Source of the DNA: Archaeoglobus fulgidus DSM 4304
Lineage (GTDB): Archaea > Halobacteriota > Archaeoglobi > Archaeoglobales > Archaeoglobaceae
Length of the DNA: 32,000 nucleotides
Reading direction: 5' to 3'
Assembly: GCF_000008665.1 (NCBI RefSeq)
Contig: NC_000917.1
Location: forward strand, 150,001-182,000
A program made the position numbers and the translations under genes. This document shows positions 7,402-24,715 of this stretch, one piece after another; the stretch's first letter is position 1; every line of letters begins with the position of its first letter. Under the pieces are notes generated by a model, which saw nothing but the letters and a program-made list of their open reading frames with translations, ran no database searches and had not been told where the DNA came from.

Positions 7402-7971
7402 CTACTCAAAATACCCCTTTCCAGCACACATAAAGCAAACCATCCTTCCATCAACCTCAGCGACGTAATCAGATGGCTGAAGCTCCCCGCATTTCTCACA
7501 TTCAACTATTGGCTCCTTTGTCCCACCCACAGGTATCGTCAGCCTTATTTCTCTAACCTCAAAGTATTCAGGCTCAAGGTTCAGAAACTCCTCAGCCAGC
7601 CTTTTCTCCTCCTCTTTGTTCAGCTTTCCAAGCCTGTAGAGGAATTTCTTTATCAGCTCAGACTTCTTGGCCGCCTCTTTCTTAATCGTCACCCTATAGC
7701 CTTCTCTGGTGTCAAACCTCACAATCGCCAAAGCGAGCTTTCCGTAGTCCTTCACAATCAAATTCCTGTTGCCGGGTGTGGTTCCTGCAACGACCTGCAG
7801 AGCATCGGGCAGGCACATTGCTGTCTCGGCAATCCCAACAAGCCCCTTCCCTCTGAAGTTCACACCAAGCTTTTCGTATGCAATTTGGGCCATCTTTATG
7901 CCCAGAGCCACTCCGGGGCTGAGGTGGCTGTGAAGCTTTGCCGCAAACTCAAGCATCTCGTTTCTGTCCAT
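7402..7971 (-). CDS. FmdE-family protein with C-terminal zinc ribbon
   Basis: 189 aa. The motif HSHLSPGVALGIKMA resembles the FmdE motif FHGHxCPGxAxG. The C-terminus has CEKCG...CFMC (CxxC...CxxC). Confidence 0.65.
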   Translation of the reverse strand: MDRNEMLEFAAKLHSHLSPGVALGIKMAQIAYEKLGVNFRGKGLVGIAETAMCLPDALQVVAGTTPGNRNLIVKDYGKLALAIVRFDTREGYRVTIKKEAAKKSELIKKFLYRLGKLNKEEEKRLAEEFLNLEPEYFEVREIRLTIPVGGTKEPIVECEKCGELQPSDYVAEVDGRMVCFMCAGKGYFE

Positions 7972-10087: not shown

Positions 10088-10993
10088 TCATGCAGTCTTC
10101 GTTTTAACGAGCTTAACCAGCCCCTCAACCTCATCCAAAAACCAGCGCTCGAATTCAGGTCTTTTGACAGCCCTTGCTATATCTTCTTCCAGCTTAAGAA
10201 CTTTTGAGACCTCCAACCATTTTTCCCTTCTGTAAGCTATGATTTCTCCGTCATCAAAGGCTTCAAGAGCTTTTTCGGTCTCCTCCTCACTTCTGAACTT
10301 TAAGCTTGTGTATATGGCCACTCTATCCGAAACGTCACCTCTGAAGACGTAAACGCTGACGATTTTGCCGTTGATATAGCCCATGAAGTGGTCAGTGGCT
10401 TTATCAAACCCCATGGACATGAACTTCTTTTTGACGTGTTCGGGGAGGTCGTCAGTCAAACATCCACAAAGGGCCTTCAGCTTCCCTGTCACAAGCTCCC
10501 TTTCGAATCTTCTGAAGAGTTCAGCTGGAAAGCCCACCACGACCTCCTCGCTGCTGTAACCTCCGAGAACCCTCGCCCCCTCGCACAGAAAGGAGACGTT
10601 GGGCTCCCCCTCTTTGATAACATCCGCCGTTGCCTCACCGCAAACCGCTCTGCTACCGCTAAACCTTGCTACCAGTAAATCTCCAAAAACCTGCCTGAAA
10701 GCTCTTGAAATCTCCATCACCTTTTCGGGGGTAGCTATGACCAGCACGACATCGTAATCTCCCTTTTCATTGTAGGGCTCGATGAGGATGCCCTGAGCCT
10801 CAAATCCCTTCAGAGGCTCAAGAAAAAGGGAAACCTCTGCTCCAGCACAGTTGAAGGCCTTTGCAATTACCCTCCTGTTTGTCGCCTCTCTCACTGCGGA
10901 GCAGAACCTGTCCATGACTTCTCCATCCTCGGTTTCAAGCAGCTTCACTCCAACAGGGCTGTATCTGAGCTGAAAATACCTCCTGAAGCTCAA
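10088..10993 (-). CDS. DUF169-like protein with ~80-aa C-terminal extension
   Basis: 301 aa. The N-terminal ~215 aa (YSPVGVKLL..., Cys-containing core) resemble DUF169/COG2043 proteins from memory. The TTG start overlaps the SepCysS stop (TTGA) and is preceded by GGAGGTGGA. Confidence 0.5.
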   Translation of the reverse strand: MSFRRYFQLRYSPVGVKLLETEDGEVMDRFCSAVREATNRRVIAKAFNCAGAEVSLFLEPLKGFEAQGILIEPYNEKGDYDVVLVIATPEKVMEISRAFRQVFGDLLVARFSGSRAVCGEATADVIKEGEPNVSFLCEGARVLGGYSSEEVVVGFPAELFRRFERELVTGKLKALCGCLTDDLPEHVKKKFMSMGFDKATDHFMGYINGKIVSVYVFRGDVSDRVAIYTSLKFRSEEETEKALEAFDDGEIIAYRREKWLEVSKVLKLEEDIARAVKRPEFERWFLDEVEGLVKLVKTKTA

Positions 10994-12162
10994 TCTTCCA
11001 CCTCCAGGCCATATTTCTCGGCAATCTCCTTGAAGGCCTCAGCAACCCTCTCAACCTCCTCCCAGCTCAGGCCGTAAACGTTGAGCTTAACGTTCCTCGT
11101 CATTCCCGGCTGCACACCAAAAATTCCCCTCTCCTTAAGCTCGTGATAGAGGAAGTATCCCTTCCGCCTGTGCTTTTTAGCTATTAAGTTAAAGGACGGA
11201 GTTTCGAAGTTCATGAGCGTGTGGTTCTTCGGCCTCTCCCCCAGAAGCATAACACCCTCAATCTTTTCCATCTCCTCAACAAACCACCTTGCCTTCTCAA
11301 CCTCCTCCTTCCATCTCTTCACCCTCTCCTTTACTACTGGAAAGGAGGCCATAAGGGTTACAAGGGGAAGGCCGTAAACTGGAGAGCAGCCGAAAAGGGC
11401 AACCTCCTTCTTGGTGAAAGCCCTGCCGCTCCAGTTTCCCCTCACTTCAGAAACCCTGAAAACCCTTTCAGCGAACTCAAAAGTTGTTGCGAGAATTCCG
11501 ATGGGTGCTGTTGCGGCCCAGCTTTTGTGCCCGCTTGCAACAATAAAGTCGCATCCCGTTTCCCTTCCACTCACCTCCATAATCCCTGAGGTGTAGGCTG
11601 TGTTCAAAATAAGCGGAATCCCGTAATCCCTGCATATTTCCGCAACCTTCTTAGCATCTGCCAGATTCCCGTATTTGTAGTCGGCGTGGGTTAGCAGTGC
11701 AACGGCGGGATAATCTCCGGTCTCCTCCTTAACCTTCTCGAAAACATCCGTATAACTCTCAGCCTCTATCCTGAACTCAGGATAGCCCGTGTTGGGAACC
11801 TCGTAAACTCTCAGGCCATTGAGTTCTGCTGCAATGTAGGTAGTGTAGTGGGCGAGGGAGTCCACCACCAAAGCCCCCTTAAACCCGCTCATCGCCACGA
11901 ACTTCGCATGCCTCGCCCCAGCGGTGAACCTCACTTCATCCATACCGAGAAACTCCGCAACCTCTTCCTTGAACCTCTTGACTGGCGGTTTGTCCAGCAG
12001 GTCAACTCTGCCCTCAAGGCAGATATCACACATGCTGTAGCCATCCCCCCACTCTAAAAGCACCTTCCTCGCCTCTTCAGTCAGAATTCCTCCTCTTTGA
12101 ATGGGATGAACGTTAATCATTCCCTTTGATGGTCTCAGCAGTTCCATAGGCTTACTTAACAT
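10990..12162 (-). CDS. pscS: O-phosphoseryl-tRNA:Cys-tRNA synthase (SepCysS) paralog, PLP-dependent
   Basis: Strong resemblance to archaeal SepCysS. Shared motifs include LLEWGDGYSMCDIC (two Cys), GARHAKF, AHYTTY, the PLP-Lys motif ASGHKSWAA, the third Cys in LFGCS, and MASFPVVKERVKRWKEEVEKARWF. The start may instead be the internal ATG at 12147 (MELLRPSKGMINVHP), which gives an N-terminal length closer to the canonical enzyme. Confidence 0.85.
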   Translation of the reverse strand: MLSKPMELLRPSKGMINVHPIQRGGILTEEARKVLLEWGDGYSMCDICLEGRVDLLDKPPVKRFKEEVAEFLGMDEVRFTAGARHAKFVAMSGFKGALVVDSLAHYTTYIAAELNGLRVYEVPNTGYPEFRIEAESYTDVFEKVKEETGDYPAVALLTHADYKYGNLADAKKVAEICRDYGIPLILNTAYTSGIMEVSGRETGCDFIVASGHKSWAATAPIGILATTFEFAERVFRVSEVRGNWSGRAFTKKEVALFGCSPVYGLPLVTLMASFPVVKERVKRWKEEVEKARWFVEEMEKIEGVMLLGERPKNHTLMNFETPSFNLIAKKHRRKGYFLYHELKERGIFGVQPGMTRNVKLNVYGLSWEEVERVAEAFKEIAEKYGLEVED

Positions 12163-12173: not shown

Positions 12174-13214
12174 TTAAGTTTTATCCCGAAGCAGTTTCCT
12201 TCCGATGTTCAGACAGTCCAAGTAAAAGTTTCCTGAGGGGGAAAATTCGAAATCAATTTCGGAGCACATGCAGACGCACGCCGGATTCTTTGTAAACCTG
12301 AACTCCTCAAGCAGGTTGAAATCCGGCATTGGAATGACAAGGGGATAGAAGCCAATAACTTCCTTGCACCTCCTGAAACCCTCGGCAGCAGGGATATAAA
12401 TTGCCTCATCTGCGAGCTCAAAGACCGCCTCAATCTGGGCGTAGGAGGCGAAAATTCCCGGGATGAAGAGGTAAAGCTGGCTGTAGTATGTTTTTGCTGA
12501 AGGAAAAACTTTCTTCTCTGCGCTGAGGTCTTCCAGCTCTTTAAAGCTGATTTGGTGGGAGTTGCGTTTGTAGGTCTCTCCGTCGTATCCAAGCTTTTCC
12601 CTTAGCAGCCTGCCATTCTTCTCTCTCAGAACAAAGAGGGTGTCGAAGATTCTGCCGAAGCTCTCACGATTTAGGTGCAAAAGGGAGTGATGAACGAAGT
12701 CGGCGAGAAAATCGGAAATATCTGTCGTGCGGTTTTTTATCCCTGACCTTTCGGCGATACTGGCGTGGAGATTGAAGGCTGGCTCGTCGCTGCCACAAAG
12801 CTTTATGTCCGCAATGCACTGCCTTTCGACGAAGTCTTCAGCAACTAAGTACTTTCTCACCTCCCATCCCCTTTTCCTTCTTGCAAACTTTGGCATCACA
12901 AGGCTGTACTTGAATGGATTTCTGGTCGTGAAGCCGTCACACAGATACGTGAGGTCAAAACGATCAAGGTCGTATGATCTGCAGAGAACCTCGGCAACGA
13001 TATTTTCGAAGTGTAAGCCAAAAAACTGCCTCCACATACCCCCTCCACTGAAATCAAAGCTGTAATCGTCAACGTCAAAGCCAAAGGTTTTCAAAAAATA
13101 GCTCCGCGCCCTGTAACCACACCTCTCCCTCGCTCTGTACTCCTTCCTCAGGTCATCATAGCTGTTAACGTAGGGCAGAGAAAAATCAAACGAAGATGAA
13201 GTTGTCACCGCCAA
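12174..13214 (-). CDS. Hypothetical 346-aa protein, no confident family assignment
   Basis: A long ORF co-oriented with the sulfur cluster. Its start overlaps the upstream gene by 29 nt. It has a weak PD-(D/E)xK-like pattern ([14 protein letters not shown]) and a C-terminal Cys cluster (CVCMC...C). Confidence 0.5.
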
Positions 13215-13575
13215 GAACCTCTGTCAGCCCGCCGACCTTGTCCACCCATTCCGGTAGCTCATCCTCTCTGAGACCGAAAAGCTCCATGCTGCCGGAGCAC
13301 GCAATGATTCGCATCCGTCCGAACGACTTTCCGAGATTCACAAGTTGCTCCAGCTCTCTCAAAATACCTCTTTTGATGCCGCTCTCAATTGCCTGTCTTT
13401 CCTCATCTCCATCGAAAACCTTCTCTCCTCTGCATATATTTCTCAGAGCCCAGTAGGTGAGAAAAACCTGCACTTCCTCGCCCATTGATGCGAGAACCGA
13501 TGCTATGCTGAATGCATGGTAAATTCTGTCCCACTGTCCGCTGTGGACTATGATTCCGTTAATTCTGTCAGACAT
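13186..13575 (-). CDS. DsrE/DsrF-like sulfur-relay family protein (COG2210-type)
   Basis: [25 protein letters not shown]...[12 protein letters not shown] shows a DsrE-fold pattern with a conserved Cys. I prefer ATG 13575 over the tracked GTG 13584 because a TATA-like box and the palindrome lie directly upstream. Confidence 0.7.
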
Positions 13576-13576
13576 A

Positions 13577-13591
13577 ATGAACACTGTTAAT
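13577..13591. promoter_or_regulatory. Degenerate copy of the same palindrome (atGAACAcTGTTAAt), 2-16 nt upstream of the dsrE-like ATG at 13575
   Basis: The AACAnTGTT core is conserved, and 11 of 14 arm positions match the other two sites. The position relative to the ATG and a TATA-like A/T box is the same as at 16363. Confidence 0.45.
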
Positions 13592-13799: not shown

Positions 13800-14138
13800 T
13801 CAAACGGAATACATCTCTTCCTCGATGAGCCCCTCCTCTCTGAGAATCTCGCAAACTCTGCAGAGGTAATCCACCTCGTCTTCGATGGTAATTCTTCCTG
13901 CTACGAGGTCATCCACGAGCTCTCTTACAATTCTCTTCGCCCCATCGGATTTCTTTATGATGTCCAGCCCCCTCTGTCCCCTTTTGCTCTTGAGGTACTG
14001 CGAAACTGCTGCCTGTGTCAACCCGAGCAAATCTGCAACATCCTTTACCCTGTAACCTCTATCTATTAGCTCAAGCGCAACCTTCGCCCTCAGGGCGGGG
14101 AGTACGTATTTCACCATCATCACGCAGTGCGGTTTCAT
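13800..14138 (-). CDS. Small HTH transcriptional regulator (COG2522-like)
   Basis: 112 aa with a helix-turn-helix segment (VKDVADLLGLTQAAVSQYLKSKRG). The start lies 3 nt after the iscU stop. It is embedded in the sulfur/Fe-S operon. Confidence 0.7.
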   Translation of the reverse strand: MKPHCVMMVKYVLPALRAKVALELIDRGYRVKDVADLLGLTQAAVSQYLKSKRGQRGLDIIKKSDGAKRIVRELVDDLVAGRITIEDEVDYLCRVCEILREEGLIEEEMYSV

Positions 14139-14141: not shown

Positions 14142-14603
14142 TCAAGCCTCACAATACTCTCCGTGGTCGTCCATCTCACCCTTCTCCATCTTCTCAAGTT
14201 CCTTTTCCAGACCTAACTCTTTTATCTTATCAATTTTTCCATTTTTTCTAAAGTAGTCAACTATTGCCCTCCTCAGCGCATCTGCGGCCAAGTTGGAGCA
14301 GTGCATTTTCTGCTTCGGCAAACCGCCAAGGGCTTCGGCAACAGCATCTCTTGTAATTTTCAGAGCTTCCTCTATAGTTTTCCCCTTCGCCATCTCAGTG
14401 GCCATGCTGCTGGTTGCAATGGCAGCAGCGCAGCCAAAGGTCTGGAACTTGATATCCTCAATTCTGTTGTCCTTCACTTTAATGTAAATGGTCATCAAAT
14501 CCCCGCAAACTGGATTGCCGACAGTTCCTACACCATCAGCATCCTCAATTTTTCCAACATTCCTCGGATTCTGGAAGTGGTCGAAAACCTTATCACTATA
14601 CAT
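14142..14603 (-). CDS. iscU: IscU/NifU-type Fe-S cluster scaffold with acidic/Lys-rich C-terminal tail
   Basis: MYSDKVFDHFQNPRNVG...GNPVCGDLM...FGCAAAIATSS...MHCSNLA carries the three scaffold Cys. ATG 14603 is preceded by GGAGGTGA. The tracked start at 14612 is a GTG. Confidence 0.9.
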   Translation of the reverse strand: MYSDKVFDHFQNPRNVGKIEDADGVGTVGNPVCGDLMTIYIKVKDNRIEDIKFQTFGCAAAIATSSMATEMAKGKTIEEALKITRDAVAEALGGLPKQKMHCSNLAADALRRAIVDYFRKNGKIDKIKELGLEKELEKMEKGEMDDHGEYCEA

Positions 14604-14608: not shown

Positions 14609-15757
14609 TCACCTCCTGTAGAGAGGAGACATGCTCCTCAGCCTCTCAATCACGCCCGGCAGCACCTCAAGCAGCCTGTCAACATCTTCGTCAGTGTTGT
14701 ATCTGCCCAGCGTCAAAAGCAGAGTGCCGTGCGCCTCCTCATGCTTCAGCCCACACGCCATGAGAACATGGCTTGGCTGCAAGGTTTTTGAGCTGCACGC
14801 CGAGCCGGTTGAAGCCTGAATTCCCGCCATGTCAAGGCTCAAAACGATTGACTCTCCCTCAATGTAGCTGAATCTCACGTTTACATTGTTGGGCAGCCTT
14901 TTTTCAGGATGGCCGTTTAGGTAGCTTTCCTCAATTTTCAGAACGTTATCGATTATCCTATCTCTCAACCTTCTGAGCCTCCCAGCCTCCTCTCCCCACT
15001 CCTTTGCGGTGATTTCAGCGGCTTTACCAAATCCAACTATCGCAGGAACGTTTTCACTACCACTCCTGAGCCCTTTTTCCTGCCCACCTCCGAGAATTAT
15101 CGGCTGCAACCTCACTCCCTGCCTTACCCAAAGCGCCCCCACTCCTTTGGGGCCGTAAATGTCGTTGCTTGAAATAGTCAGCATATCAGCACCGATCTTC
15201 TCAACATCCACCTCAATTTGCCCGAGAGAGGCTGTAGCATCAACGTGCAGAGCTGCTCTACCGTTAATTATTTCTGAAATCTCCTTTATGGGCTGAATCG
15301 TTCCAATTTCGTTGTTTGCATGCTGAACAGAAACAAGAATCGTGTCTTCCCTGATTTTCTCCTCAATAAATTCAAGGTCGACGGTGCCGTATTTGTCCAC
15401 TGGGATGAATTCAACCTCAAATCCCTGCTTCTGAAGATACTTTGCCGGATTTATGACGGACATGTGCTCAATTGATGAAACGAGAACGTGCTTACCCTTT
15501 CTGGCGTTTCTCATCGCATATCCAATGAGAGCGAGGTTGTTGGACTCCGTGGCACCTGAGGTGAAAACGATGTCCCCGCCACCACCATTTATCAGCTCCG
15601 AAATCTTCCCCCTTGCCTCCTCAATCACCTCTCTTGCTTTAAAGCCGTAGGAGTGGACTGAGGAAGGATTTCCGAAGTGCTCGGTCATGTAGGGAAGCAT
15701 TGCTTCAACAACCCTCTCATCCACAGGCTTTGTGGAGGCGTAGTCAAAGTAGGGCAT
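14609..15757 (-). CDS. iscS: IscS/NifS-like class V aminotransferase-fold protein in which the PLP-binding Lys is replaced by Asp
   Basis: From [16 protein letters not shown]... (ATG 15757, preceded by GAGGTGGTGG) the protein is 382 aa. The Cys loop GSACSS is present. The canonical S-x-H-K-x-x-G-P-K-G motif reads [10 protein letters not shown]. The tracked upstream start (15823) would overlap the preceding gene. Confidence 0.9.
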
Positions 15758-15767: not shown

Positions 15768-16127
15768 TCAGAAATAGAGCACACCATCCGCCTCAAGAAC
15801 GAGCTGGTTGAGCGTTGCAGCACCTACAATCTTGACACCATCAACAATCTCTCCCTTATCAATCCCAAGGAGTTCGGAGCTTCTGTCGCAAACCATCATC
15901 TCAACCCCGCTTTCCCTTGCCTGTTTCATTAACTCACTCAGCGGCGGAAAGTTTCCCATCTTAATTTTCTCAGCATTATCCTTTTTAACAACTGTTACAC
16001 CCTTGATAACAAAGTAAATGATTGCATCATCTCCCATGGCCTTGGCGGTCATTGCGAGGACGAAGGGAGCGTAGAGCCTTTCGGGAGTGTCGATACCGCT
16101 CGTCTGAACGTAAAGCAGCTTCGCCAT
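15768..16127 (-). CDS. DsrE-family sulfur-relay protein
   Basis: 119 aa. [25 protein letters not shown]...MMVCDRS fits the DsrE fold. GGAGGTGA lies upstream, and the gene abuts the tusA-like stop. Confidence 0.75.
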
Positions 16128-16361
16128 CTACCTCACCTCCTTTACAATTTTTACAACAAACCTCAAAACCCCATCCTCAAGCTTTTCAAACTCGACAAGC
16201 TCCTGACCGAGCTTTTTAACCAAAACTGGGATGTCCGATTCTGCAGCAGGGTCGTCTGCAAGAATTTCTATAATTTCCCCAACCTCTGACTCTTCCATTG
16301 CCTTCCTCGCCCTGAATACGGGTTCGGGGCAGTAGAGGCCGATACAGTCAACCTGTTTCAT
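16128..16361 (-). CDS. tusA: TusA/SirA-like sulfur carrier
   Basis: 77 aa with the diagnostic CPxP motif (DCIGLYCPEPV). It is the first gene of the minus-strand cluster. Confidence 0.8.
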   Translation of the reverse strand: MKQVDCIGLYCPEPVFRARKAMEESEVGEIIEILADDPAAESDIPVLVKKLGQELVEFEKLEDGVLRFVVKIVKEVR

Positions 16362-16379: not shown

Positions 16380-16725
16380 TAACTATTTAAAAGTTTCGGG
16401 AAAAAAAATAGTTTCCACATAGGGAGTCAAAATGAAAAATAATTACCTGCCACGAGAGGATGATCACCAAAGCAAGCCCTTTAATAAATCCAGGTAACTC
16501 GGCAGGCTGGATGAAAATGTTGATAAAGTAGGATTTCAGATTTTAGGACAATACCTTCTTCTGGGAAGCGTATTTAAGACAATAGTTGCAGATAAAACGA
16601 TTGATTTTGGAGATGAAACGTATCGTCAGCTTATGAAACGTTCTGAACCATCTGGCAGCTTCAATTTCAGACGTTTTAACGGGCAAGACCTATTGCCTTT
16701 CAGGTTAAAGCAGTTATGAGGTGAA

Positions 16726-17094
16726 ATGGATTGGAAGAAGATTAGCATAGTGCTGGTGCTGGTGGCTGGGCAGGGCTCTATGTTGCGACGGCAATACCAT
16801 GGGGAATGATGAGGTACGGAGGATACGGTTACATACCCATGATGGGCGGAAATGGCATGGGCGGAGGTTACGGAATGGGTGGTGAAATACGGGTACAGAT
16901 ATGGCTATGATTACAACAACACGCCACAGCAGCCAGTGCAGCAAGGCTACTACGTAACGTACCACTGGCACTGCCCGGATGATGTGGCACTGGTGAGTGG
17001 GCACAGTTACATATCATACCTCTCTTTTCTCAAATTTTTTAAGCAAAGCAGCATTCGCGCTCCGTGCACAAGCTTTCTGGAATGTAGCTCATAA
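16726..17094 (+). pseudogene. Signal-anchored Gly/Tyr/Met-rich small protein, broken by two frameshifts
   Basis: GAGGTGA plus ATG 16726 gives MDWKKISIVLVLVAG, then nonsense and a stop at 16807-16809. The -1 frame continues AGLYVATAIPWGMMRYGGYGYIPMMGGNGMGGGYGMGG. The original frame resumes as KYGYRYGYDYNNTPQQPVQQGYYVTYHWHCPDD... (tracked ORF 16852..17094). The breaks are at about 16768-16770 (G run) and about 16878-16885. Confidence 0.5.
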
Positions 17095-17214: not shown

Positions 17215-17769
17215 TCAGCCGAGTTCCTTCAGATAGGCTATGATATCGTTCAAGTCCTCATCGCTCATCTGCCACCTTGGCATGCACCAGTCGAGGGTTT
17301 CGTTATCATGCTCCCCCTTTGTGATTGCAATTCTGATCTCCTCGTCACTCATCTCCTCTTCAGTTAAGGCGGAGTATCTTATGTCTGGAGCCTTTTCATT
17401 GCACATCATCGGCACAAGCCCTCCCCTTCCATCCCTGCCATGGCAGTTCACGCAGCTTCCCCCATGCATCACCAGCCATTGAGGACCACCTGTAAAGGGG
17501 ATTCTCTCTCCCTTCTCGTTAATTCCCGTGAAGTAAATTTTTTCTCCATTTGAACTGAACTCAGCAGGACCCTGACAGCAGCCCGGTGGGTAGTAGCGCT
17601 CATCACTGTAGCCCATCATCGGGTTGTAGCCACCCATTGGGTAGCCACCGTAGCCCATCATAGGCATGTAGCCGTAGGGGGTTAAGAAGTTCAGCAGGAA
17701 GAACGCCACAACCACGACTGCAATTATCGCAACAACAATTTCGGACTTTTCCATGGTATTTATCAGCAT
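17215..17769 (-). CDS. Membrane-anchored monohaem c-type cytochrome with a Met/Gly/Tyr-rich linker
   Basis: One CxxCH motif (GGSCVNCHG), an N-terminal TM helix (IVVAIIAVVVVAFFLL), then PYGYMPMMGYGGYPMGGYNPMMGY. The start could be ATG 17754 (MEKSEIVV), directly downstream of an A/T-rich box. Confidence 0.7.
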   Translation of the reverse strand: MLINTMEKSEIVVAIIAVVVVAFFLLNFLTPYGYMPMMGYGGYPMGGYNPMMGYSDERYYPPGCCQGPAEFSSNGEKIYFTGINEKGERIPFTGGPQWLVMHGGSCVNCHGRDGRGGLVPMMCNEKAPDIRYSALTEEEMSDEEIRIAITKGEHDNETLDWCMPRWQMSDEDLNDIIAYLKELG

Positions 17770-17904
17770 AAAATTTTAAAAATTTTTTTACTCGGTTCCA
17801 ACGATATTAAGGAAACTTAGAATAAAAAGTTTGGAATCTTTTGTTGCTAGACTAATGCTTAGATCGAGTGGTTTTGAAAAGTTCAGCTCTCTATACCACA
17901 ACCT

Positions 17905-18440
17905 CTACCTCAGCAACCTCATCGAGTTCATAACGGCAATCAGCGTAACCCCGACATCCGCAAACACAGCCTCCCACATCGTCGCCATCCCCATTGCGCC
18001 GAGGCTTATGAAGAATCCTTTTACAGCTAAGGCGAGGACTATGTTCTCCCATACTACCTTCTGTGTCCTCTTTGCCAGCCTAATTGCTCTGGCAACCTTC
18101 GACGGCCTGTCGTCCATGATCACGACATCCACCACCTCGATGGCTGCACTTCTCATCGCCCCCATGGAGATGCCCACATCAGCCCCCGCTATAACTGGGG
18201 CATCGTTGATGCCATCTCCAACAAAAGCAAAGCTTTCTCCTTAGCCTTAATCTCCTCTATAACCCTCACCTTGTCTTCCGGCAGCAGTTCTGCGAAGTAT
18301 TCGATGCCCAGCTCTGATGCGATGCTTTCGGCAATCCCCCTGCTATCTCCGCCCAGTAGCAGTTTTTCCACCCGCATCCGGTGTAGCAGTAGGGAATCCA
18401 CCGAACAGACAGCCAACGTTAACAGAGCTATACAGAGCAT
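17905..18440 (-). pseudogene. C-terminal remnant of a heavy-metal P1B-type ATPase (Zn/Cd-like), N-terminally truncated and frameshifted
   Basis: ORF 18189..18440 reads ...LLLGGDSRGIAESIASELGIEYFAELLPEDKVRVIEEIKAKEK. The -1 frame continues SFAFVGDGINDAPVIAGADVGISMG... into ORF 17905..18177, ending ...VFADVGVTLIAVMNSMRLLR. This covers the P-type hinge motif GDGINDAP and the last two TM helices only. The frameshift is at the T3/A3 run at 18234-18236. Confidence 0.8.
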
Positions 18441-18503
18441 AGCTCATACATGTGTTCACTAATATCAAATGTTTAAAAATCTTTCGCCAATTGACACCAA
18501 AAT

Positions 18504-18830
18504 ATGCAATCAGTAAAGGATATTTTTAAGGAGCTTAAATCTTTGAGAGGAACGACTCGAAATTAAAGTTTTGGGAATTGCAACCTACATCCAGACATCA
18601 TCTGTGAGAAGAACTGCTAAAATCCTTTCAGAGTTGCATCCTGTTTCTAAATCATCAGTACATCGCTGGATAAAGAAGTTTGAGGAAAAATTGCCCATCT
18701 CAGCGGAGAAAAAAGGAATCTGATAGCGATGGATGAGACAGTGGTTAAGGCGAACAGGAAGCATTACTACGTCTATGCTGCGATAGGTGTGGAGTGGAAT
18801 GAGCTCATTCTTATGAGGGTCGCTGCCACA
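18504..18830 (+). pseudogene. Degenerate N-terminal fragment of an IS6-family (IS240-type DDE) transposase
   Basis: Pieced together across three frames: MQSVKDIFKELKSLRG / ERLEIKVLGIATYIQTSSVRRTAKILSELHPVSKSSVHRWIKKFEEKLPISAEKK / NLIAMDETVVKANRKHYYVYAAIGVEWNELILMRV. This is an HTH followed by the first catalytic Asp region (DETxxK). Similarity ends near 18830. Confidence 0.7.
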
Positions 18831-19001
18831 ATTTCTGGAATCTGTTCTGTAAGCTGTTTATGCTTTACTACAATCGATCGAGGTGGTTTTTGTGTTATGT
18901 GGACACATTCAAATGAGAAATCGAAATGGTATAATGGTATATGGATGTAGCAAAGCTACATCTTATCATGACAATTTATCACTAAGCTTTCAAAGATGAA
19001 A

Positions 19002-19016
19002 GAAAAACTTATTTTG
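19002..19016. repeat. Left copy of the 15-bp target-site duplication GAAAAACTTATTTTG
   Basis: Identical to 19980-19994 and directly abuts the left IS end. Confidence 0.85.
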
Positions 19017-19979
19017 TGTAGTATCCCAAAATTATTTCACAACCCTAAACCCAACTCTTGTGAGAAAACTAACGAACAAAAAGATCAAGTGGATCATCAA
19101 ACAGCTCGAAAAGGGAACACCAGTAAAGGAAATAGCTGCTGTGATGAGAGTTACACCAAGAAGAATCTACCAGCTTAAAAAGCAATACGAGGAAACTGGC
19201 CAGATCCCAGAACTAAAACAAGCAGGAAGAAAGCCCAAACCAATTGACGAGAAAACAGAGCAAATCATCCTGCAAGCCTACAAAAAATACAGGGTAAGTC
19301 CAGTACCTCTTTAAAAGCTGATAGAAAGAAATTACAGAATCCACATCCCCCACAACACCATATACAAAGTTTTACTCAAACACGGTTTGGTGGAGGAGAA
19401 CATGAACAAGAAGAAAAGGAGGAAGTGGGTTCGCTATGAAAGGACTCATTCAATGTCTTTATGGCAGGGAGACTGGAAAAAGCTTGGAGAGAAATGGATT
19501 ATAGCCTTCATGGACGATGCTTCCCGCTTCATCACCTGCTATGGAGTATTTGACTCTGCTACTACTGAGAACACAATCAAGGTGTTCAAGAAAGGATTCG
19601 CTGAGTATGGCATTCCGGATGAAATCCTCACAGACCATGGTACCCAATTTGTTGCAGCGAAAAGCAGAGAGAAGGCTAGGCACAGATTCAGAGAGTTTTT
19701 GGCCGAGAATGGAGTAAGGCACATTCTTGCGAGAGTGAACCATCCACAAACGAATGGGAAGATAGAGAGGTTCTTTGGGCTGATGGAGCAGAAGCTCCAT
19801 CTGTTTGATTCTTTGGATGAGTTCATTTATTGGTACAATTACGTTAAGCCTCACATGAGCCTGAATTTTGATGAACTGGAGACTCCTTACCAAGCTTTTC
19901 TGAGGAAGCTACCTGCTGAAAGGGTGTTTGAGTACGGGAGGTGGTTGTTTGAGGAGTGAAATTATTTCGGGATATCACA
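19017..19979 (+). mobile_element. Complete 963-bp insertion sequence (rve/DDE integrase type, IS481-like; the size matches the A. fulgidus element named ISA0963)
   Basis: Imperfect terminal inverted repeats: TGTAGTATCCCAAAATTATTTCAC at 19017-19040, versus the reverse complement of 19957-19979, TGTGATATCCCGAAATAATTTCAC. The element is flanked by a perfect 15-bp direct repeat. Confidence 0.85.
19060..19959 (+). pseudogene. IS transposase (HTH + rve integrase core) interrupted by one in-frame TAA at 19312-19314
   Basis: ORFs 19060..19314 and 19387..19959 are in the same frame. Read-through gives ...YRVSPVPL*KLIERNYRIHIPHNTIYKVLLKHGLVEENMNKKKRRKW.... The DDE triad candidates are in FMDDASRF, LTDHGTQF and HPQTNGKIERFF. 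Confidence 0.8.
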
Positions 19980-20565: not shown

Positions 20566-22188
20566 ATGAGGTACAACCTGACCATAAAGAAGACCCTCTT
20601 TTTCCCCCTGCACGCCTTTCCGAACAAGGAGATAGTCTACAGGGACATCAACAGATACACCTACAGGAGATTCTACGAAAGGTTGCAGAGAGTTGCCAGC
20701 TCCCTTGAAAATATTGGGGCTAGGGGAGCGAAGATTGCCTTCATAGACTGGAACACGCACCAGTATCTGGAAGGGATGTTCGCCATTCCAATGATGGGCA
20801 GCATTCTGCACTGCGTAAACCTAAGACTGGCTCCAGAAGAGATAGTTTACACGATGCGCTACGTCGAGGACGACTTTGTTGTTATCAGGGACGAGTTTCT
20901 GCCCTTGGCCGAGAAGCTCGCTCCCCATGTGCCATCAGTGAAGGGCTGGATAGTGACGGGCGATGATGTGGACAAAGTCGAGACAAGCCTCAAGCCGGTT
21001 TACATCTGGGAGGATCTTGTTAAGGAGGGTTCGAGCTACGATTTTCCTGAGCTTGACGAGCATGAAACGGCGGTGGTTTACTTCACCTCAGGCACCACAG
21101 GATTGCCTAAGGCTGTCCACTTCTCCCACAGGCAGGTGGTGATGCAGTGCATAATCAACGGCCTTGCCCTTTCAGCCAATGAATCCCCAGCGAGGATGAG
21201 CTCTGCAGACACCATAATGCACATCCCGCCCTTCTTCCACGGAATGGGCTGGACTTTCCCGTATCTGGCAACAATGCTTGGAATGAAGCAGGTTCTGCCG
21301 GGAAGATATGAGCCTCAGGTAATGCTGGATTTGATAAAGAATGAGGGCGTTACCTTTGCAGGCGGGGTGCCGGTGTTCCTTAAAATGCTCATTGAGCATC
21401 CAGAGGCTGAGAAGTACAAGGATGCTCTGTCCAAGTTCAAGTTTGTGTGCGATGGTGAGCACCCGCAGAGAGTGCTTTTTGAGAGAGCTAAGCAGCTGGG
21501 CATAAAGATGATTGAAGCTTTTGGCATGTCTGAAGGAGTGGGGTTTACCTTTGCCGTTCTAAAGGACCACATGCTGGACTGGGACTGGGAGAGGCAGGTG
21601 GAGTATCTCAACAAGGCAGGCTTGCCCGCTCCCTTCGTTGAGGTCAGGATTGTTGACGATGAGGGCAAAGAGGTGCCGAGGGACTTCCAGACGATGGGTG
21701 AGATTCTCATCAGAAGTCCCGGCCTGACGGAGGGATACTGGAAGAATCCGGAGAAGACTGCTGAATCTTGGGATGAGGAAGGATGGTTCCACACCGGCGA
21801 TTTGGGAGTGTGGGATGAGGAGGGCTACATCCTGATTCTCGACAGGGCTAAGGACGTCATAAAGAGTGGAGGCGAGTGGATAAGCTCCGTAAGGCTTGAG
21901 GGATACATTCTGGAGCATCCTGCTGTCAGCGAGGCTGCAGTAGTTGCTGCGAGGAGCGAGAAGTGGAGTGAGAGGCCCATAGCCGTCGTTGTGCCAAAGC
22001 CCGGGATGAGCGTGACAGAGAAGGAGATAATAGACTTCCTGATGAAGAACTTCGTTGAGACGGGAAAGATGGCGAAGTGGTGGCTGCCTGACAGGGTTTT
22101 CATTGTGGATGAGATGCCGAGAACCACTGTGGGCAAGATAAACAAGAGGGCGATAAGGGAGAAGTACAAGGACCTCGTACTCCCCTGA
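20566..22188 (+). CDS. Medium/long-chain acyl-CoA synthetase (AMP-forming)
   Basis: 540 aa with the AMP-binding signature YFTSGTTGLPKAV, also GYWKNPEKT, WFHTGDLG and the C-terminal catalytic Lys region TTVGKINKR. GGGGTGGTGG lies before the ATG. Confidence 0.9.
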   Translation: MRYNLTIKKTLFFPLHAFPNKEIVYRDINRYTYRRFYERLQRVASSLENIGARGAKIAFIDWNTHQYLEGMFAIPMMGSILHCVNLRLAPEEIVYTMRYVEDDFVVIRDEFLPLAEKLAPHVPSVKGWIVTGDDVDKVETSLKPVYIWEDLVKEGSSYDFPELDEHETAVVYFTSGTTGLPKAVHFSHRQVVMQCIINGLALSANESPARMSSADTIMHIPPFFHGMGWTFPYLATMLGMKQVLPGRYEPQVMLDLIKNEGVTFAGGVPVFLKMLIEHPEAEKYKDALSKFKFVCDGEHPQRVLFERAKQLGIKMIEAFGMSEGVGFTFAVLKDHMLDWDWERQVEYLNKAGLPAPFVEVRIVDDEGKEVPRDFQTMGEILIRSPGLTEGYWKNPEKTAESWDEEGWFHTGDLGVWDEEGYILILDRAKDVIKSGGEWISSVRLEGYILEHPAVSEAAVVAARSEKWSERPIAVVVPKPGMSVTEKEIIDFLMKNFVETGKMAKWWLPDRVFIVDEMPRTTVGKINKRAIREKYKDLVLP

Positions 22189-22206
22189 TGCTCACACTTT
22201 GAGCAT
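22188..22206 (+). terminator. Hairpin ATGCTCA-cactt-TGAGCAT overlapping the stop codon, followed by a T-rich tract
   Basis: A 7-bp perfect inverted repeat, followed by aattcaatttttta. This is a speculative terminator or operator. Confidence 0.25.
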
Positions 22207-22274
22207 AATTCAATTTTTTAAGATGATAATGAATTTAAATTTGCTCATTAAATGTTATAAATTGGAGGTGAACT

Positions 22275-24263
22275 ATGGAGCCGAAAATTTTGTGGGAGCC
22301 GGATTCGGAGTTTATCAAAAACTCCAATCTGGCCGAGTTTGTTGAGTGGCTTTCTTCAAACAAGGGTCTCGATTTTGTGGTTTCAGAGAATGCGAGGGAG
22401 AACGTTGAGAACTACAAGAACCTCTGGAAGTGGTCTGTGGAGAACCTTGAGGACTTCTGGGAGAGCGTGTGGGAGTTCTTTGAGATTAAGAGCTACAGCG
22501 ATTACAAGACTGTTCTCGATGAAAGGAAGATGCCGGGAGCAAAGTGGTTTGAGGGGGCAACGCTGAACTATGCGGAGCATGCCTTTTTGAAGGCTGGTGA
22601 GGGAGAAGCGGTTGTTTACGTTAGAGAGGACGGTTTGAGGAGGGCTTTAACATGGAGCGAGCTGGAGAGGCAGACTGCAGCCTTTGCTGCTTGGCTTAAA
22701 GATATGGGTGTAAAGAAGGGAGACAGGGTTGTTGCCTACTGCAGTCAGGTTCCTGAAGCGGTTATTGCATTGCTGGCAACGGCGAGCATTGGTGCAATCT
22801 GGGCGGCCGTTGGTGGTGAGGTTGCGCCAAGGGCTGTTATTGACAGGTTCAAGCAGCTTGAGCCAAAGGTTCTGATCGCATCTGATGGCCACTTCTACAA
22901 CGGGAAGGAGTTCAACAAGCTGGAGGACATTAAGACCGTTGTCAGCGGCATCCCGAGCCTTGAGAGGGTTGTCTTGATTCCCAACCTCTACGAGTCCCAC
23001 GACCTGAAGCTTAGCATCCCACTCCACTATTGGGAAGAGACGGTTGATAGAAAGGAGAAGCTCACCTTCGAGCCTCTGCCCTTTGACCATCCACTATGGG
23101 TTCTTTACACCTCAGGAACAACAGGAATTCCGAAGCCCATTGTTCACGGGCATGGGGGGATAACGGTCGAGATCTTCAAGGGCTCCTTCCACATGGACTT
23201 CAAGGAGGGCGACCGCTTCCTGTGGTACTCCCCGCCCTCATGGATGATGTGGAACACTGTTGTTAGCGGTCTCCTCGCTGGAGCTACCATTGTCTTCTAC
23301 GATGGCAGCCCGCTTTACAACTTCCTCCAGCCGCTGTGGCAGATATGCGAGAAGGAGAAGCTGAACATCTTCGGAACGAGTGCTCCCTTCCTCCACGGCT
23401 GCATGAAATTCGGCCTGCAGCCCGGCTCGCAGTACGATTTGAGCAGCTTGAGAATGGTTGGCTCCACCGCCGCCCCGCTATCGCCTGAGGGCTTTGAGTG
23501 GGTTTACAGGAATGTTAAGGAGGACGTATGGCTGAACTCTGCAAGCGGCGGGACGGATGTGATGACGGGCTTTGTTGGAGGCTGCCCAATTCTCCCCGTC
23601 TGGAGTGGAGAGCTTCAGTGCAGGTGGCTGGGGACGAAAGTTGAGGCTTACAACATTGAAGGCAAGCCTGTAATCAATGAAGTGGGAGAGCTTGTCATCG
23701 AGCTCCCGATGCCCTCAATGCCCCTCTACTTCTGGAATGACAAGGACTTCAGCTGGTATAAAGAGAGCTACTTCAGCATGTTCCCCAACGTCTGGTGGCA
23801 CGGGGACTGGCTGATGATTACAGACAGAGGAACGGCAATAATCTTCGGCCGCTCTGATTCAACAATCAAGAGAAAGGGAGTTAGAATGGGAACTCTGGAC
23901 TTCTACAAGGTTGTCGAGAGTATGAACGAAATTATCAGCAGCCTCGTTGTTGAGGTCAAGGGCAAGATTTTCCTCTTCGTGGTTCCAGCACATGGAATTG
24001 AGGTCAACGAGGAGCTTAAGGAGAAGATAAACAGAGCCTTGAAAGAGAATCTCGGAGCCTACTTCGTTGCGGACTACATTATTCCAGTGCCCGACATTCC
24101 AATGACTTTGAACTACAAGAAGCTGGAGGTGCCGATAAAGAAGATTCTGCTCGGCTGGGAAGTGGAGAAGGCAGTGAACCTTGACAGCATAATGAATCCT
24201 GATGCCGTTTTCAAGGTCGTTGAGGCTGCAAAGCCCTACGTGGAGCAGCTGGAGGGAGAATGA
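22275..24263 (+). CDS. Acetoacetyl-CoA synthetase-type acyl-CoA ligase
   Basis: 662 aa. The N-terminus (ILWEPDSEFIKNSNLAEFVEWL...NLWKWSVENLEDFWESVWEFF) and YTSGTTGIPKPIVHGHGG are typical of the acetoacetate-CoA ligase family. GGAGGTGA lies before the ATG. Confidence 0.8.
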   Translation: MEPKILWEPDSEFIKNSNLAEFVEWLSSNKGLDFVVSENARENVENYKNLWKWSVENLEDFWESVWEFFEIKSYSDYKTVLDERKMPGAKWFEGATLNYAEHAFLKAGEGEAVVYVREDGLRRALTWSELERQTAAFAAWLKDMGVKKGDRVVAYCSQVPEAVIALLATASIGAIWAAVGGEVAPRAVIDRFKQLEPKVLIASDGHFYNGKEFNKLEDIKTVVSGIPSLERVVLIPNLYESHDLKLSIPLHYWEETVDRKEKLTFEPLPFDHPLWVLYTSGTTGIPKPIVHGHGGITVEIFKGSFHMDFKEGDRFLWYSPPSWMMWNTVVSGLLAGATIVFYDGSPLYNFLQPLWQICEKEKLNIFGTSAPFLHGCMKFGLQPGSQYDLSSLRMVGSTAAPLSPEGFEWVYRNVKEDVWLNSASGGTDVMTGFVGGCPILPVWSGELQCRWLGTKVEAYNIEGKPVINEVGELVIELPMPSMPLYFWNDKDFSWYKESYFSMFPNVWWHGDWLMITDRGTAIIFGRSDSTIKRKGVRMGTLDFYKVVESMNEIISSLVVEVKGKIFLFVVPAHGIEVNEELKEKINRALKENLGAYFVADYIIPVPDIPMTLNYKKLEVPIKKILLGWEVEKAVNLDSIMNPDAVFKVVEAAKPYVEQLEGE

Positions 24264-24703
24264 TGCAGAGCCTTTACTTTGAAGACTTTCAGGAAGGAAT
24301 GGAGCTTGAAACTGTTGGGAGAACAGTAACGGAAGCGGACATAGTGATGTTCGCTGCCCTCACAGGAGACTGGAATCCCATACACGTTGATGCAGAATAT
24401 GCGAAAACAACAATTTTTGGCCAGCGCATCGCCCACGGAACACTCACATTTTCCATCATGACCGGTTTGCTGATGAGGCTTGGATTTCTGGAGGAGACCG
24501 TTGTTGCCTTTTACGGCGTTGACAGGCTCCGCTTTACCAATCCCGTTTTCATTGGAGACACGATTAAGGCGAGAGCAAAGGTTGTGGAGAAGCAGGACAG
24601 GGGGCAGTTTGGTGTTGTGAAGATAGAAGCGAGTGTGGTTAAGCAGACAGGCGATGTGGTGCTGAACTGCATTCTGAGGGTTGCGGTGAAGAAGAAAGGC
24701 TGA
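24260..24703 (+). CDS. MaoC-like (R)-specific enoyl-CoA hydratase (hot-dog fold)
   Basis: 147 aa with the hydratase motif LTGDWNPIHVDAEYAKTTIFGQRIAHG. There is an ATGA start/stop overlap with the upstream gene. Confidence 0.85.
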   Translation: MMQSLYFEDFQEGMELETVGRTVTEADIVMFAALTGDWNPIHVDAEYAKTTIFGQRIAHGTLTFSIMTGLLMRLGFLEETVVAFYGVDRLRFTNPVFIGDTIKARAKVVEKQDRGQFGVVKIEASVVKQTGDVVLNCILRVAVKKKG

Positions 24704-24715
24704 GGAGGTGAGAAA

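Follow-up and report, generated by a model that had tools for sequence, protein, structure and literature searches.

Gene organization of the locus

The window, i.e. the whole stretch of 32,000 nucleotides that was analysed, carries on its minus strand five co-directional genes, separated by gaps of 0-10 nt, which encode in this order a TusA-family sulfur carrier, a DsrE-family protein, an IscS-like protein without the Schiff-base lysine of cysteine desulfurases (hereafter lysine-less IscS), an IscU/NifU-type scaffold and a small HTH protein. These genes, a second DsrE-like gene beyond them and the putative control elements in front of them are listed in Table 1.

Table 1. Positions of the cassette genes, of the degenerate motif and of the putative control elements in the window
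Feature	Positions	Strand	Remarks
TATA-box-like TTTTAAATA, preceded by BRE-like CGAAAC	16384..16392	minus	Putative archaeal promoter for the cassette, about 27 nt ahead of the TusA start codon (ATG)
13-nt palindrome TTAACAATGTTAA	16365..16377	minus	Candidate operator, lying after the TATA box and ahead of the TusA start
TusA-family sulfur carrier, 77 aa	16128..16361	minus	Pfam PF01206, E 4.6e-23; Cys11 in C-P-x-P
DsrE-family protein, 119 aa	15768..16127	minus	Pfam PF02635, E 1.2e-21; Cys80 in V-C-(D/E)-x-S; start abuts the TusA stop
Lysine-less IscS-like protein, 382 aa	14609..15757	minus	Asn198-Asp199 replace His-Lys; Cys321 kept
Codons of the degenerate PLP-lysine motif, S196-S-N-D-I-Y-G-P203	15149..15172	minus	Sequence and alignment register
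IscU/NifU-type scaffold, 153 aa	14142..14603	minus	ATG at 14603, 5 nt after the stop of the lysine-less IscS; Pfam NifU_N, E 2.9e-53
Small HTH protein, 112 aa	13800..14138	minus	Starts 3 nt after the IscU stop; weak HTH_5/HTH_23 matches
Second, divergent DsrE-like protein (DrsE_2 type), 132 aa	13186..13584	minus	Pfam PF13686, E 1.8e-11; Cys kept (IIACSGS)

The window TusA is a homolog of E. coli TusA as seen in the IscS-TusA complex 3LVJ, and its Cys11, Pro12 and Pro14 do not vary among 13 cassette TusAs (Cys11-Pro-Glu-Pro in the window). The top PDB match of the window DsrE is 3MC3, a DsrE/DsrF-like protein. Cys80 of this DsrE is invariant in 12 aligned sequences, and we did not consider the protein as a DsrE2 proper because it reaches 49 bits against the NCBIfam DsrE2 cut-off of 210. 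The scaffold scores 210 bits with NCBIfam TIGR03419, over the cut-off of 188, and all its cluster ligands are present (Cys33, Asp35, Cys58 and His101-Cys102). Orthologs of the HTH protein are found at the same position in two related loci, L084 and L085, the first of which also has an ortholog of the second DsrE-like protein; in fact, the block of nucleotide synteny with L084 runs from 16398 to 13193, ending at this gene.

In the upstream region, an AAAg/c-nTtTAAAT block is kept in four Archaeoglobi loci, while the remaining intergenic region has diverged. The palindrome keeps 11 of its 13 positions unchanged between the window, L084, L085 (A. neptunius) and L089. A possible regulator of the cassette, and the obvious candidate for binding the palindrome, is the operon's own HTH protein.

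The adjacency of SepCysS/DUF169 was considered as a core part of the cassette and rejected, being kept only in the window and in Geoglobus. None of the HscA/B, Fdx, IscA and IscR-type domains was found in the cassette flanks, and Pfam/NCBIfam scans of the window genes gave no DsrF/H, DsrC/TusE or MnmA domains, with DsrE-type genes occurring only singly. Scanning the window for tRNAs and Rfam families gave no matches.

The degenerate lysine motif

The sequence-only reading of this DNA had placed S-S-N-D-I-Y-G-P at residues 196-203 of the IscS-like protein, with Asp199 (codon gac, complement of 15161-15163) at the position of the Schiff-base lysine, Asn198 in place of the preceding histidine and the persulfide loop retained. 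A codon-wise reading of the minus strand, numbered from the ATG at 15757 (MPYFDY), bears this out: positions 15172-15149 read tca agc aac gac att tac ggc ccc, with S196 to Y201 spanned by 15155-15172 and the G-P extending to 15149, and the loop is present as G318-S-A-C321-S-S. In the alignment, the lysine column is K in 187 of the 187 Lys-bearing homologs, inside S-x-H-K-x-x-G-P, and the column before it is H in 167 of them. Around the motif the alignment has no gaps, nor does it show a lysine elsewhere in register with the PLP site, the exact position being fixed by the engineered D199K mutant (PDB 4R5F), which is also the sole "NK" entry among the top homologs. A longer ORF with a GTG start, reaching 15823, is an alternative for this gene; we considered the ATG at 15757 as the likelier start because it gives an end-to-end match to the crystallised 382-aa protein and lies 10 nt past the DsrE stop.

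The substitution had been judged probably genuine, and this judgement stands. SSND is found in all the 119 natural top homologs, at 61-100% identity, and comparison with two relatives gives the gene a dN/dS of 0.11 and 0.056. A sequencing error or a decaying pseudogene is refuted by these homologs, by a dN/dS of 0.06-0.11, by the same motif in crystal structures and by an intact ORF of 382 codons; nothing was found in favour of either, and we regard their probability as negligible.

Relation to A. fulgidus IscS2

The lysine-less IscS of the window matches PDB entries 4EB5, 4EB7 and 4HVK (A. fulgidus "Probable cysteine desulfurase 2") with 87% identity over all 382 residues (E 3.7e-228). On the strength of this similarity we consider the gene as a close relative, called here an ortholog, of A. 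fulgidus IscS2 (AF_0564), known from its (IscS-IscU)2 complex, with which it has in common SSND/Asp199, the Cys321 loop and the adjacent IscU. A lysine-less IscS is hence already known and the substitution is not new; since it has been characterised both structurally and biochemically in the relative, by itself it merely adds another member. The structures 4HVK, 4EB5 and 4EB7 and the D199K mutant 4R5F are credited to Marinoni 2012, Yamanaka 2013 and Pagnier 2015 in PMC8918507. At the DNA level the gene is a mosaic: its 3′ third hardly differs from A. fulgidus, while its 5′ part shows about 25% divergence per 150 nt.

PMC8918507 and PMC7585200 describe AfIscS as a protein in which Asp199 replaces the lysine and desulfurase activity is absent, which forms a complex with IscU and gives a cysteine ligand (Cys321) to the [2Fe-2S] cluster, and for which a role as scaffold only is proposed. 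The suggestion that the window protein would act as a scaffold partner rather than a desulfurase is in line with this description. The sequence-only reading had also referred to structural work on an A. fulgidus IscS that lacks the lysine, binds no PLP and still complexes with IscU. The first and last of these elements are correct and the second is inexact: PMC8918507 reports PMP for crystals of the wild type and of the D199K mutant, and PLP for the IscS-IscU(D35A) complex with its cluster bound, so that the cofactor of AfIscS is non-covalently bound, not absent.

Catalytic residues and family assignment

The lysine-less IscS matches Pfam PF00266 (Aminotran_5, class-V aminotransferase fold) over residues 3-362 (E 5.4e-80). 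With the canonical type I desulfurases IscS, NifS and NFS1 (E. coli IscS, PDB 1P3W) it shares a common fold, about 45% identity, the Cys loop, the pairing with IscU and the cofactor contacts His104, Asp180 and Thr76, but it is devoid of Lys206, His205, Gln183 and Arg354 of the canonical IscS and falls under the NifS/IscS equivalog cut-offs. Precisely, it scores 480.5 with TIGR03402 NifS (cut-off 530.75) and 421.4 with TIGR02006 IscS (cut-off 643.2), and the sole NCBIfam model that it passes is the broad subfamily model NF002806 (312.5 against 304). Besides the lysine, three catalytic positions are changed across the Lys-less clade, i.e. His205→Asn, Gln183→Ala and Arg354→Leu/Val in E. coli numbering, the last two corresponding to Ala176 and Leu347 in the window protein, whereas Lys-bearing sequences have Arg354 in 186/187 cases and Gln183 in 183/187.

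In a neighbour-joining tree computed with the active-site columns left out, 139 Lys-less sequences form one split without any Lys-bearing sequence. Judged from these sequence comparisons, the Asn-Asp substitution sets apart a large clade, which is evolving under purifying selection. As a warning for annotation, hundreds of proteins from Bathyarchaeia, Hadarchaeia, Asgard and Archaeoglobi genomes that bear the name "cysteine desulfurase" or "NifS" are without the four catalytic residues.

Among 153 Lys-less sequences the mobile-loop cysteine (Cys321; Cys328 equivalent) is present in every one, the Asp199 column is Asp in 136 and the Asn155 position is variable, while 88-99% retain the equivalents of the cofactor-pocket residues His104, Asp180, Thr76, Ser203 and Thr243, in agreement with non-covalent cofactor binding. 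Lys-less, PMP-dependent fold-type-I enzymes such as ColD and E1 dehydrase are precedents for a protein of this kind that would still be an enzyme, using non-covalent PMP or PLP for a reaction other than cysteine desulfuration. The PMP and PLP found in the crystals and the kept pocket would fit such an enzyme, as would the prevalence of Asp at position 199, which suggests a non-random replacement. However, no activity has been reported, the loss of the α-carboxylate-binding Arg354 together with the variable Asn155 means that the amino-acid binding site is gone, and a structural role explains the conserved pocket equally well. We consequently consider another enzymatic function as improbable.

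Co-occurrence with TusA and DsrE genes

The sequence-only reading had raised the possibility that the Asn-Asp variant always co-occurs with adjacent TusA/DsrE genes. As a test set we considered the matches of a scan of a mixed genome collection, unselected, and we used TusA and DsrE HMMs built on ORFs of at most 200 aa. The result was strongly positive: among the matches listed, a same-strand short TusA gene lies immediately upstream in 13 of the 13 Lys-less loci, usually together with DsrE, against 0 of the 61 Lys-bearing loci (Fisher about 1e-14 among the matches listed, a value that ignores shared ancestry). In six further loci (L084-L089) TusA is present in all six and DsrE in five. A Lys-less IscS gene is thus almost always found directly behind TusA and DsrE genes, an association that may be new, and the difference between Lys-less and Lys-bearing loci among the matches listed points to a role tied specifically to the loss of desulfurase chemistry.

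The cassette occurs in Archaeoglobi, Hadarchaeia, Bathyarchaeia, Asgard archaea, Methanomethyliaceae, Methanomicrobiaceae and Thermoplasmata, and also in actinobacterial MAGs and in one Halanaerobiales MAG. DsrE is absent at the Ferroglobus and Geoglobus loci and at two Asgard loci. In three Asgard loci a flavoprotein disulfide reductase fused to rhodanese-TusA-rhodanese is encoded just downstream. The link to TusA is not universal to all Lys-less lineages, as TusA was not found at two others, P0157 (Gln-Gln), which adjoins NuoF-like and MoCF genes, and P0167 (His-Thr), which consists of HTH-IscS-IscU only.

Sulfur supply to the lysine-less IscS

The sulfur source of AfIscS-IscU is an acknowledged open question (PMC8918507, PMC7585200). 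The explanation that we prefer, with a probability of roughly 0.6 for the whole of it, is that an IscS unable to use cysteine would serve as an IscU-paired platform fed with sulfane sulfur by TusA and DsrE. According to this explanation, a class-V aminotransferase-fold protein descended from the IscS/NifS cysteine desulfurases would no longer use cysteine, the residues for substrate holding and cofactor tuning being replaced as well (Arg354→Leu, Gln183→Ala, His205→Asn). Together with the IscU encoded 5 nt downstream it would form an (IscS-IscU)2 assembly platform, in which the nascent [2Fe-2S] cluster would have Cys321 as its fourth ligand, both features having been seen experimentally in the 87%-identical relative. 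The sulfur would arrive not from cysteine but as protein-bound sulfane sulfur via TusA and DsrE, presumably co-transcribed immediately upstream; the persulfide, made from sulfide-derived or polysulfide/thiosulfate sulfur, would be passed by TusA Cys11 and DsrE Cys80 to Cys321 and/or IscU. Such a persulfide relay is what the four-gene TusA-DsrE-IscS-IscU cassette suggests for the origin of the sulfur.

The E. coli IscS-TusA-TusBCD-TusE-MnmA relay offers a comparison, since the cassette likewise brings together a member of the IscS family, a TusA that has its cysteine in CPxP, and a Cys-bearing DsrE/TusD-family protein. E. coli, however, has a TusBCD heterohexamer of three DsrEFH paralogs, whereas the cassette has a single DsrE and no TusE/MnmA nearby. 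In E. coli the transfer goes from IscS to TusA, opposite to the proposed relay. The lysine-less IscS cannot make persulfide, hence the sulfur flow in the cassette must start elsewhere and is possibly reversed with respect to E. coli. The residues of E. coli IscS that dock TusA are Trp45, Glu49 and Asp52 (IscS-TusA complex 3LVJ; PMC2854127); the corresponding residues in the window are Phe39, Glu43 and Glu46, and these columns vary across the clade (F/L/H/Y/N; K/N/E/Q). The E. coli docking residues are not specifically conserved in the Lys-less clade, a point that may count against the relay.

A different explanation is that IscS-IscU uses free sulfide directly, and that the TusA and DsrE of the operon serve elsewhere, in tRNA thiolation, in molybdenum cofactor synthesis or in reactive-sulfur buffering. 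Use of free sulfide is the hypothesis favoured by published authors for the sulfate-reducing A. fulgidus (PMC8918507). In locus L001, which encodes an IscS identical to the one crystallised from A. fulgidus, there is no TusA and DsrE is 5′-truncated, unlike the window with its intact TusA and full-length DsrE; the A. fulgidus system hence apparently works without TusA/DsrE, or uses copies elsewhere in the genome. In Geoglobus, ThiI lies directly upstream of TusA-IscS-IscU, which would fit another role of TusA, as would locus P0249, with TusA and the lysine-less IscS but without IscU, from which it follows that the pair can exist apart from Fe-S scaffolding. On the other side, an onward relay of the E. 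coli type would have no sulfur source in an IscS that cannot make persulfide, the annotated cassette neighbours included no TusB/C, TusE/DsrC or MnmA, and direct use of sulfide would leave the TusA adjacency (13/13 against 0/61 among the matches listed) to be accounted for. Overall, we consider free sulfide as unlikely, though clearly less so than another enzymatic function.

Returning to the persulfide relay, the TusA-DsrE-IscS-IscU set could tentatively be seen, with a confidence somewhat short of even, as a distinct, ancient and widespread module of anaerobes for cysteine-independent Fe-S assembly, in which a dead desulfurase would act as persulfide receiver and cluster ligand. If true, the module would answer where AfIscS-IscU gets its sulfur, and the TusA/DsrE adjacency makes a cysteine-independent sulfur route into the Fe-S clusters of anaerobic archaea a testable hypothesis.

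Related archaeal systems

The isc1 cluster of M. acetivorans (IscS1 MA0808, IscU1 MA0807) has an IscS1 without the catalytic lysine (PMC7585200). Its Cys loop, GSACFS, is that of the "HT" lineage L027/P0188, where TusA-DsrE are upstream; going by its description, IscS1 belongs to a separate His-Thr Lys-less lineage outside the main Asn-Asp clade. In literature outside subscription-only sources, we found no paper linking TusA/DsrE to the sulfur supply of AfIscS-IscU. The model strain, with no TusA and a truncated DsrE, apparently has a degraded cassette, and the M. acetivorans equivalents are recorded only as "unknown function", two possible reasons for the link having been missed.

The MIS system MisS/MisU (Garcia et al.), as outlined in PMC13066941, has an archaeal IscS-like/IscU-like core without HscAB, Fdx, IscA and IscR, as in the window. 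MisS is given there as a cysteine desulfurase, whereas the lysine-less IscS is without the catalytic residues and would be catalytically dead, and its cassette has two extra sulfur-carrier genes.

Sequence comparisons

We scanned genomes, one for each species, with aligned Lys-less proteins. This yielded a mixed and unselected set of at least 80 loci (44-61% identity, many phyla), whose ORFs were searched with TusA, DsrE and IscU profiles. Active-site residues were compared between 153 Lys-less and 187 Lys-bearing sequences, using the enterobacterial IscS of locus L071 for the E. coli numbering.

Identity of the Lys-less IscS-like protein

The IscS-like protein of the window (IscS*) is encoded by 382 codons and begins with MPYFDY. 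The ORF call reaches further, to a GTG at 15823; we preferred the ATG at 15757 because from there the protein is collinear end to end with its crystallised homolog, and because this start lies 10 nt past the stop of the upstream gene. As the sequence-only reading had reported, residues 196-203 are S-S-N-D-I-Y-G-P (15172-15149, minus-strand reading), with codon gac for Asp199 (complement of 15161-15163), and the persulfide mobile-loop motif, G-S-A-C321-S-S, is unbroken.

The best match among PDB sequences was the A. fulgidus 'Probable cysteine desulfurase 2' (IscS2, or AfIscS; 4EB5, 4EB7, 4HVK; E 3.7e-228, residues 1-382), followed by 4R5F, the engineered D199K mutant, whose sole difference is Lys at 199. 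The window and A. fulgidus proteins share 87% identity; the substitution is real but already known. The first reading had pointed to a published A. fulgidus IscS without the Lys, and the literature agrees: in AfIscS the catalytic Lys is replaced by Asp199, cysteine desulfurase activity is absent, and the protein is proposed to serve solely as a scaffold, in line with the scaffold partnership first suggested (PMC8918507, PMC7585200, PMC13066941). The complex with IscU named there corresponds to the published IscS-IscU structure with [2Fe-2S], where AfIscS Cys321 is the fourth ligand of the IscU-held cluster (PMC8918507, PMC7585200, PMC13066941). The accompanying statement that the protein binds no PLP needs correcting in that the protein is not cofactor-free: PMP is found in the wild-type and D199K crystals and PLP in the [2Fe-2S]-bound IscS-IscU(D35A) complex (PMC8918507, PMC7585200, PMC13066941).

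The window protein is almost certainly an AfIscS-type inactive paralog, having every testable feature of that group and lacking three of the features that define a cysteine desulfurase. By homology to the published experiments, IscS* can be taken to be catalytically dead towards cysteine, to bind IscU and to ligate a [2Fe-2S] cluster through Cys321.

A distinct and selected subfamily

Of the best 120 homologs, 119 are natural proteins, and every one of these (61-100% identity; Archaeoglobus, Ferroglobus, Geoglobus, Hadarchaeia, Bathyarchaeia and MAGs labelled 'Thaumarchaeota') has S-S-N-D; the sole N-K entry is the PDB mutant. The substitution is genuine, as first supposed; it is conserved, and published work already accounts for it. 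A broken gene was ruled out by this conservation and by dN/dS values of 0.11 and 0.056 against two Archaeoglobus relatives. IscS* scores under the NCBIfam equivalog cut-offs for NifS and IscS, and belongs to a protein subfamily of its own that selection has maintained.

The best 150 cluster representatives (clusters at 50% identity) included 113 with H-K, 16 with S-K and about 17 that were Lys-less (ND, SA, NS, GP, QG, SD, QQ, HM, HT, HR, HL, RS, NQ, NP). In a neighbour-joining tree built without five active-site columns, 139 Lys-less sequences and no Lys-bearing one fell on one side of a split; parsimony implied about six more independent losses of the Lys. The family alignment placed a Lys in every Lys-bearing sequence where the window protein has Asp199. 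Judged by the aligned residues, the Lys-less sequences have evidently lost the amino-acid substrate-binding machinery and kept both the cofactor pocket and the Cys that handles sulfur.

Residues at active-site positions (E. coli numbering) in 153 Lys-less and 187 Lys-bearing sequences
Position	Lys-less	Lys-bearing
Lys206	Asp 136/153	Lys 187/187
His205	Asn 139/153	His 167/187
Gln183	Ala 137/153	Gln 183/187
Arg354	Leu/Val 139/153, Arg 4	Arg 186/187
Asn155	variable	Asn 181/187
His104	kept 149/153	187/187
Asp180	kept 152/153	186/187
Thr76	kept 148/153	165/187
Ser203	kept 149/153	137/187
Thr243	kept 135/153, plus 14 Ser	185/187
Cys328	kept 153/153	186/187

The cassette and its linkage across genomes

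IscS* is the third gene of a tight, co-directional minus-strand row. At the nucleotide level, synteny with L084, a 93%-identical relative, covers exactly 16398-13193, so the cassette acts as a unit with differing flanks. The BRE/TATA-like element and the palindrome TTAACAATGTTAA are kept in four Archaeoglobi loci, with 11 of the 13 palindrome positions invariant, although the rest of these intergenic regions has diverged; the palindrome could serve as an operator, possibly bound by the HTH protein of the cassette.

Features of the window (first 20 rows) and of three Asgard loci
Feature	Coordinates	Strand	Size	Remarks
TusA	16128-16361	minus	77 aa	Cys11 in CPEP
DsrE	15768-16127	minus	119 aa	0 nt after TusA; Cys80
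IscS*	14609-15757	minus	382 aa	10 nt after DsrE; Asn198-Asp199, Cys321
IscU	14142-14603	minus	153 aa	5 nt after IscS*; every cluster ligand present
HTH protein	13800-14138	minus	112 aa	3 nt after IscU; weak HTH matches
Second DsrE-like protein	13186-13584	minus	132 aa	gap ~215 nt; Cys retained
BRE/TATA-like element	16384-16392	minus		upstream of TusA
Palindrome TTAACAATGTTAA	16365-16377		13 nt	between TATA-like box and TusA ATG
ORF with TTG start	12174-13214	minus	346 aa	between DsrE-like gene and SepCysS
SepCysS	10990-12162	minus		few genes downstream of cassette
DUF169 protein	10088-10993	minus		follows SepCysS
IS fragment, HTH	18571-18723			by P-type ATPase remnant
IS fragment, DDE IS240-like	18729-18950			by P-type ATPase remnant
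IS fragment, rve integrase core	19387-19959			by P-type ATPase remnant
Cytochrome-c-like protein	17215-17769	minus	184 aa	CVNCH motif, N-terminal membrane segment, Met/Gly/Tyr-rich stretch
Short ORF	16806-16910	plus		similar M/G/Y-rich peptide; 400 nt from cytochrome-c-like gene
Psr/Phs-type molybdopterin oxidoreductase operon	2197-7343	minus
FmdE-domain protein	7402-7971			near Psr/Phs-type operon
Hemerythrin-PAS protein	20-967			near Psr/Phs-type operon
Fatty-acid activation/β-oxidation cluster	20566-29972	plus
Pyr_redox_2 + rhodanese + TusA + rhodanese fusion	L007 9242-11638
Same fusion	L014 8783-11185
Same fusion	L015 8360-10741

Among the matches listed, all 13 Lys-less loci had a short TusA (74-84 aa, one of them N-terminally extended) upstream in the same orientation, and 11 of these loci also had DsrE, whereas neither TusA nor DsrE was found within 6 kb at any of the 61 Lys-bearing loci for which 1 kb or more of upstream sequence was available (Fisher ~1e-14 for TusA, not corrected for shared ancestry). 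The TusA-positive Lys-less loci came from archaea (Bathyarchaeia, Promethearchaeota, Thorarchaeota, Methanomethyliaceae with Trp-Asp, Methanomicrobiaceae with Asn-Glu, Thermoplasmata with Asn-Asn) and bacteria (three actinobacterial MAGs and a Halanaerobiales MAG of the separately branching His-Thr lineage); both carriers were absent at the listed Lys-bearing archaeal loci of Thermoplasmata, Aenigmarchaeota, Micrarchaeota and Methanomassiliicoccales. In gene tables of further loci, the order TusA-DsrE-IscS*-IscU recurs in a distant, 63% identical ND-type metagenome contig (L003), in A. neptunius, two other Archaeoglobi, one Hadarchaeon and one Bathyarchaeales genome; Ferroglobus and Geoglobus have TusA-IscS*-IscU without DsrE.

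The co-occurrence raised for checking by the sequence-only reading thus held for the loci listed and failed as a rule without exception: outside them, an outlying Asn-Asp protein has TusA and no IscU, one His-Thr protein has only HTH-IscS-IscU, and a Gln-Gln lineage adjoins NuoF-like and MoCF genes. In the latter (L090 2704-5194, L091 1905-4395) the gene overlaps NuoF-like (Complex1_51K) and follows MoCF_biosynth; TusA, DsrE and IscU are absent from these loci, where a dead desulfurase seems to have been put to another use. The near-obligate TusA(-DsrE) partnership of Lys-less IscS across many anaerobic lineages is the result added here.

At cassette loci, IscU is lengthened in some lineages (L007 7183-7983, L008 3460-4239, L009 7162-7965, L010 3845-4648, L027 7161-7796): it reaches 259-267 aa in MAGs of Asgard archaea and Actinobacteria, where an uncharacterised C-terminal domain faintly matches Pyr_redox, and 211 aa with a FeS_assembly_P domain in Halanaerobiales. 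A TRASH/YHS-type metal-binding mini-protein of 51-54 aa, a possible metal-handling partner, directly follows IscU in Hadarchaeia and Bathyarchaeales (L087 6546-6701, L088 6567-6731).

A possible sulfur relay

From the gene linkage and the conserved cysteines we infer that TusA and DsrE may deliver protein-bound sulfane sulfur to IscS* Cys321 and/or IscU, so that carrier-borne sulfur would replace the lost desulfurase chemistry. We put the probability of AfIscS-type identity and relay, as a combined statement, at roughly 0.6; the relay itself falls somewhat short of even odds. In its favour, three Asgard loci encode, 1.2-2 kb downstream of IscU, an ~800-aa sulfane-sulfur-handling fusion (a flavoprotein disulfide reductase of the CoA-disulfide/persulfide-reductase type). 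Against it count the published preference for free sulfide as the sulfur source, the transfer direction known in E. coli, from IscS to TusA, the variation across the Lys-less clade at the positions of the E. coli docking residues, and the degraded cassette of L001, a contig encoding an IscS identical to that of A. fulgidus.

In its components the operon resembles the E. coli IscS-TusA-TusBCD relay, without TusB/C, TusE and MnmA. It also fits the two-gene 'MIS' outline, differing in that its own MisS is no desulfurase and in having two carriers in addition. The loop sequence of M. acetivorans IscS1 matches the His-Thr lineage of L027, which carries TusA-DsrE.

In L001, TusA is absent (region 1-1250), the stretch homologous to the window begins at window 16105, within DsrE, and DsrE has 94 aa, without its first 25 codons; read by eye, a putative FeoB-like membrane-protein C-terminal fragment lies upstream. 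The cassette of the model organism appears degraded, which may be why the TusA/DsrE link went unnoticed. We found no literature connecting TusA/DsrE with Lys-less IscS, key subscription papers being outside reach, and the partnership offers a lead on an openly acknowledged question.

The window iscS* is a mosaic with respect to L001, with 23-39 nt differences per 150 nt over codons 1-250 and only 10 in total over codons 251-383. This 3' third (14609-15000) points to recent recombination, in a tract that A. fulgidus shares.

Other features of the window

The SepCysS is full (TIGR02539, 512 bits against a cut-off of 365) and a paralog of PDB 2E7I. In Geoglobus (L086 4482-6589) the SepCysS-DUF169 pair precedes ThiI-TusA-IscS*-IscU and adjoins assimilatory sulfate-reduction genes. 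Neither Pfam nor NCBIfam matched the 346-aa ORF, and none of the compared loci has a homolog.

The region 17831-19959 contains a P-type ATPase remnant together with the neighbouring IS fragments. The HAD-domain fragment of the remnant aligns with no more of a 752-aa homolog than residues 557-622; IS insertion probably destroyed the gene. The cytochrome-c-like gene and the M/G/Y-rich ORF, on opposite strands, form inverted DNA repeats. The Psr/Phs-type operon comprises an 896-aa catalytic subunit, a 4Fe-4S subunit, an NrfD membrane subunit and a TorD-like chaperone, and the fatty-acid cluster includes three AMP-binding ligases, an acyl-CoA dehydrogenase and two thiolase-like proteins.
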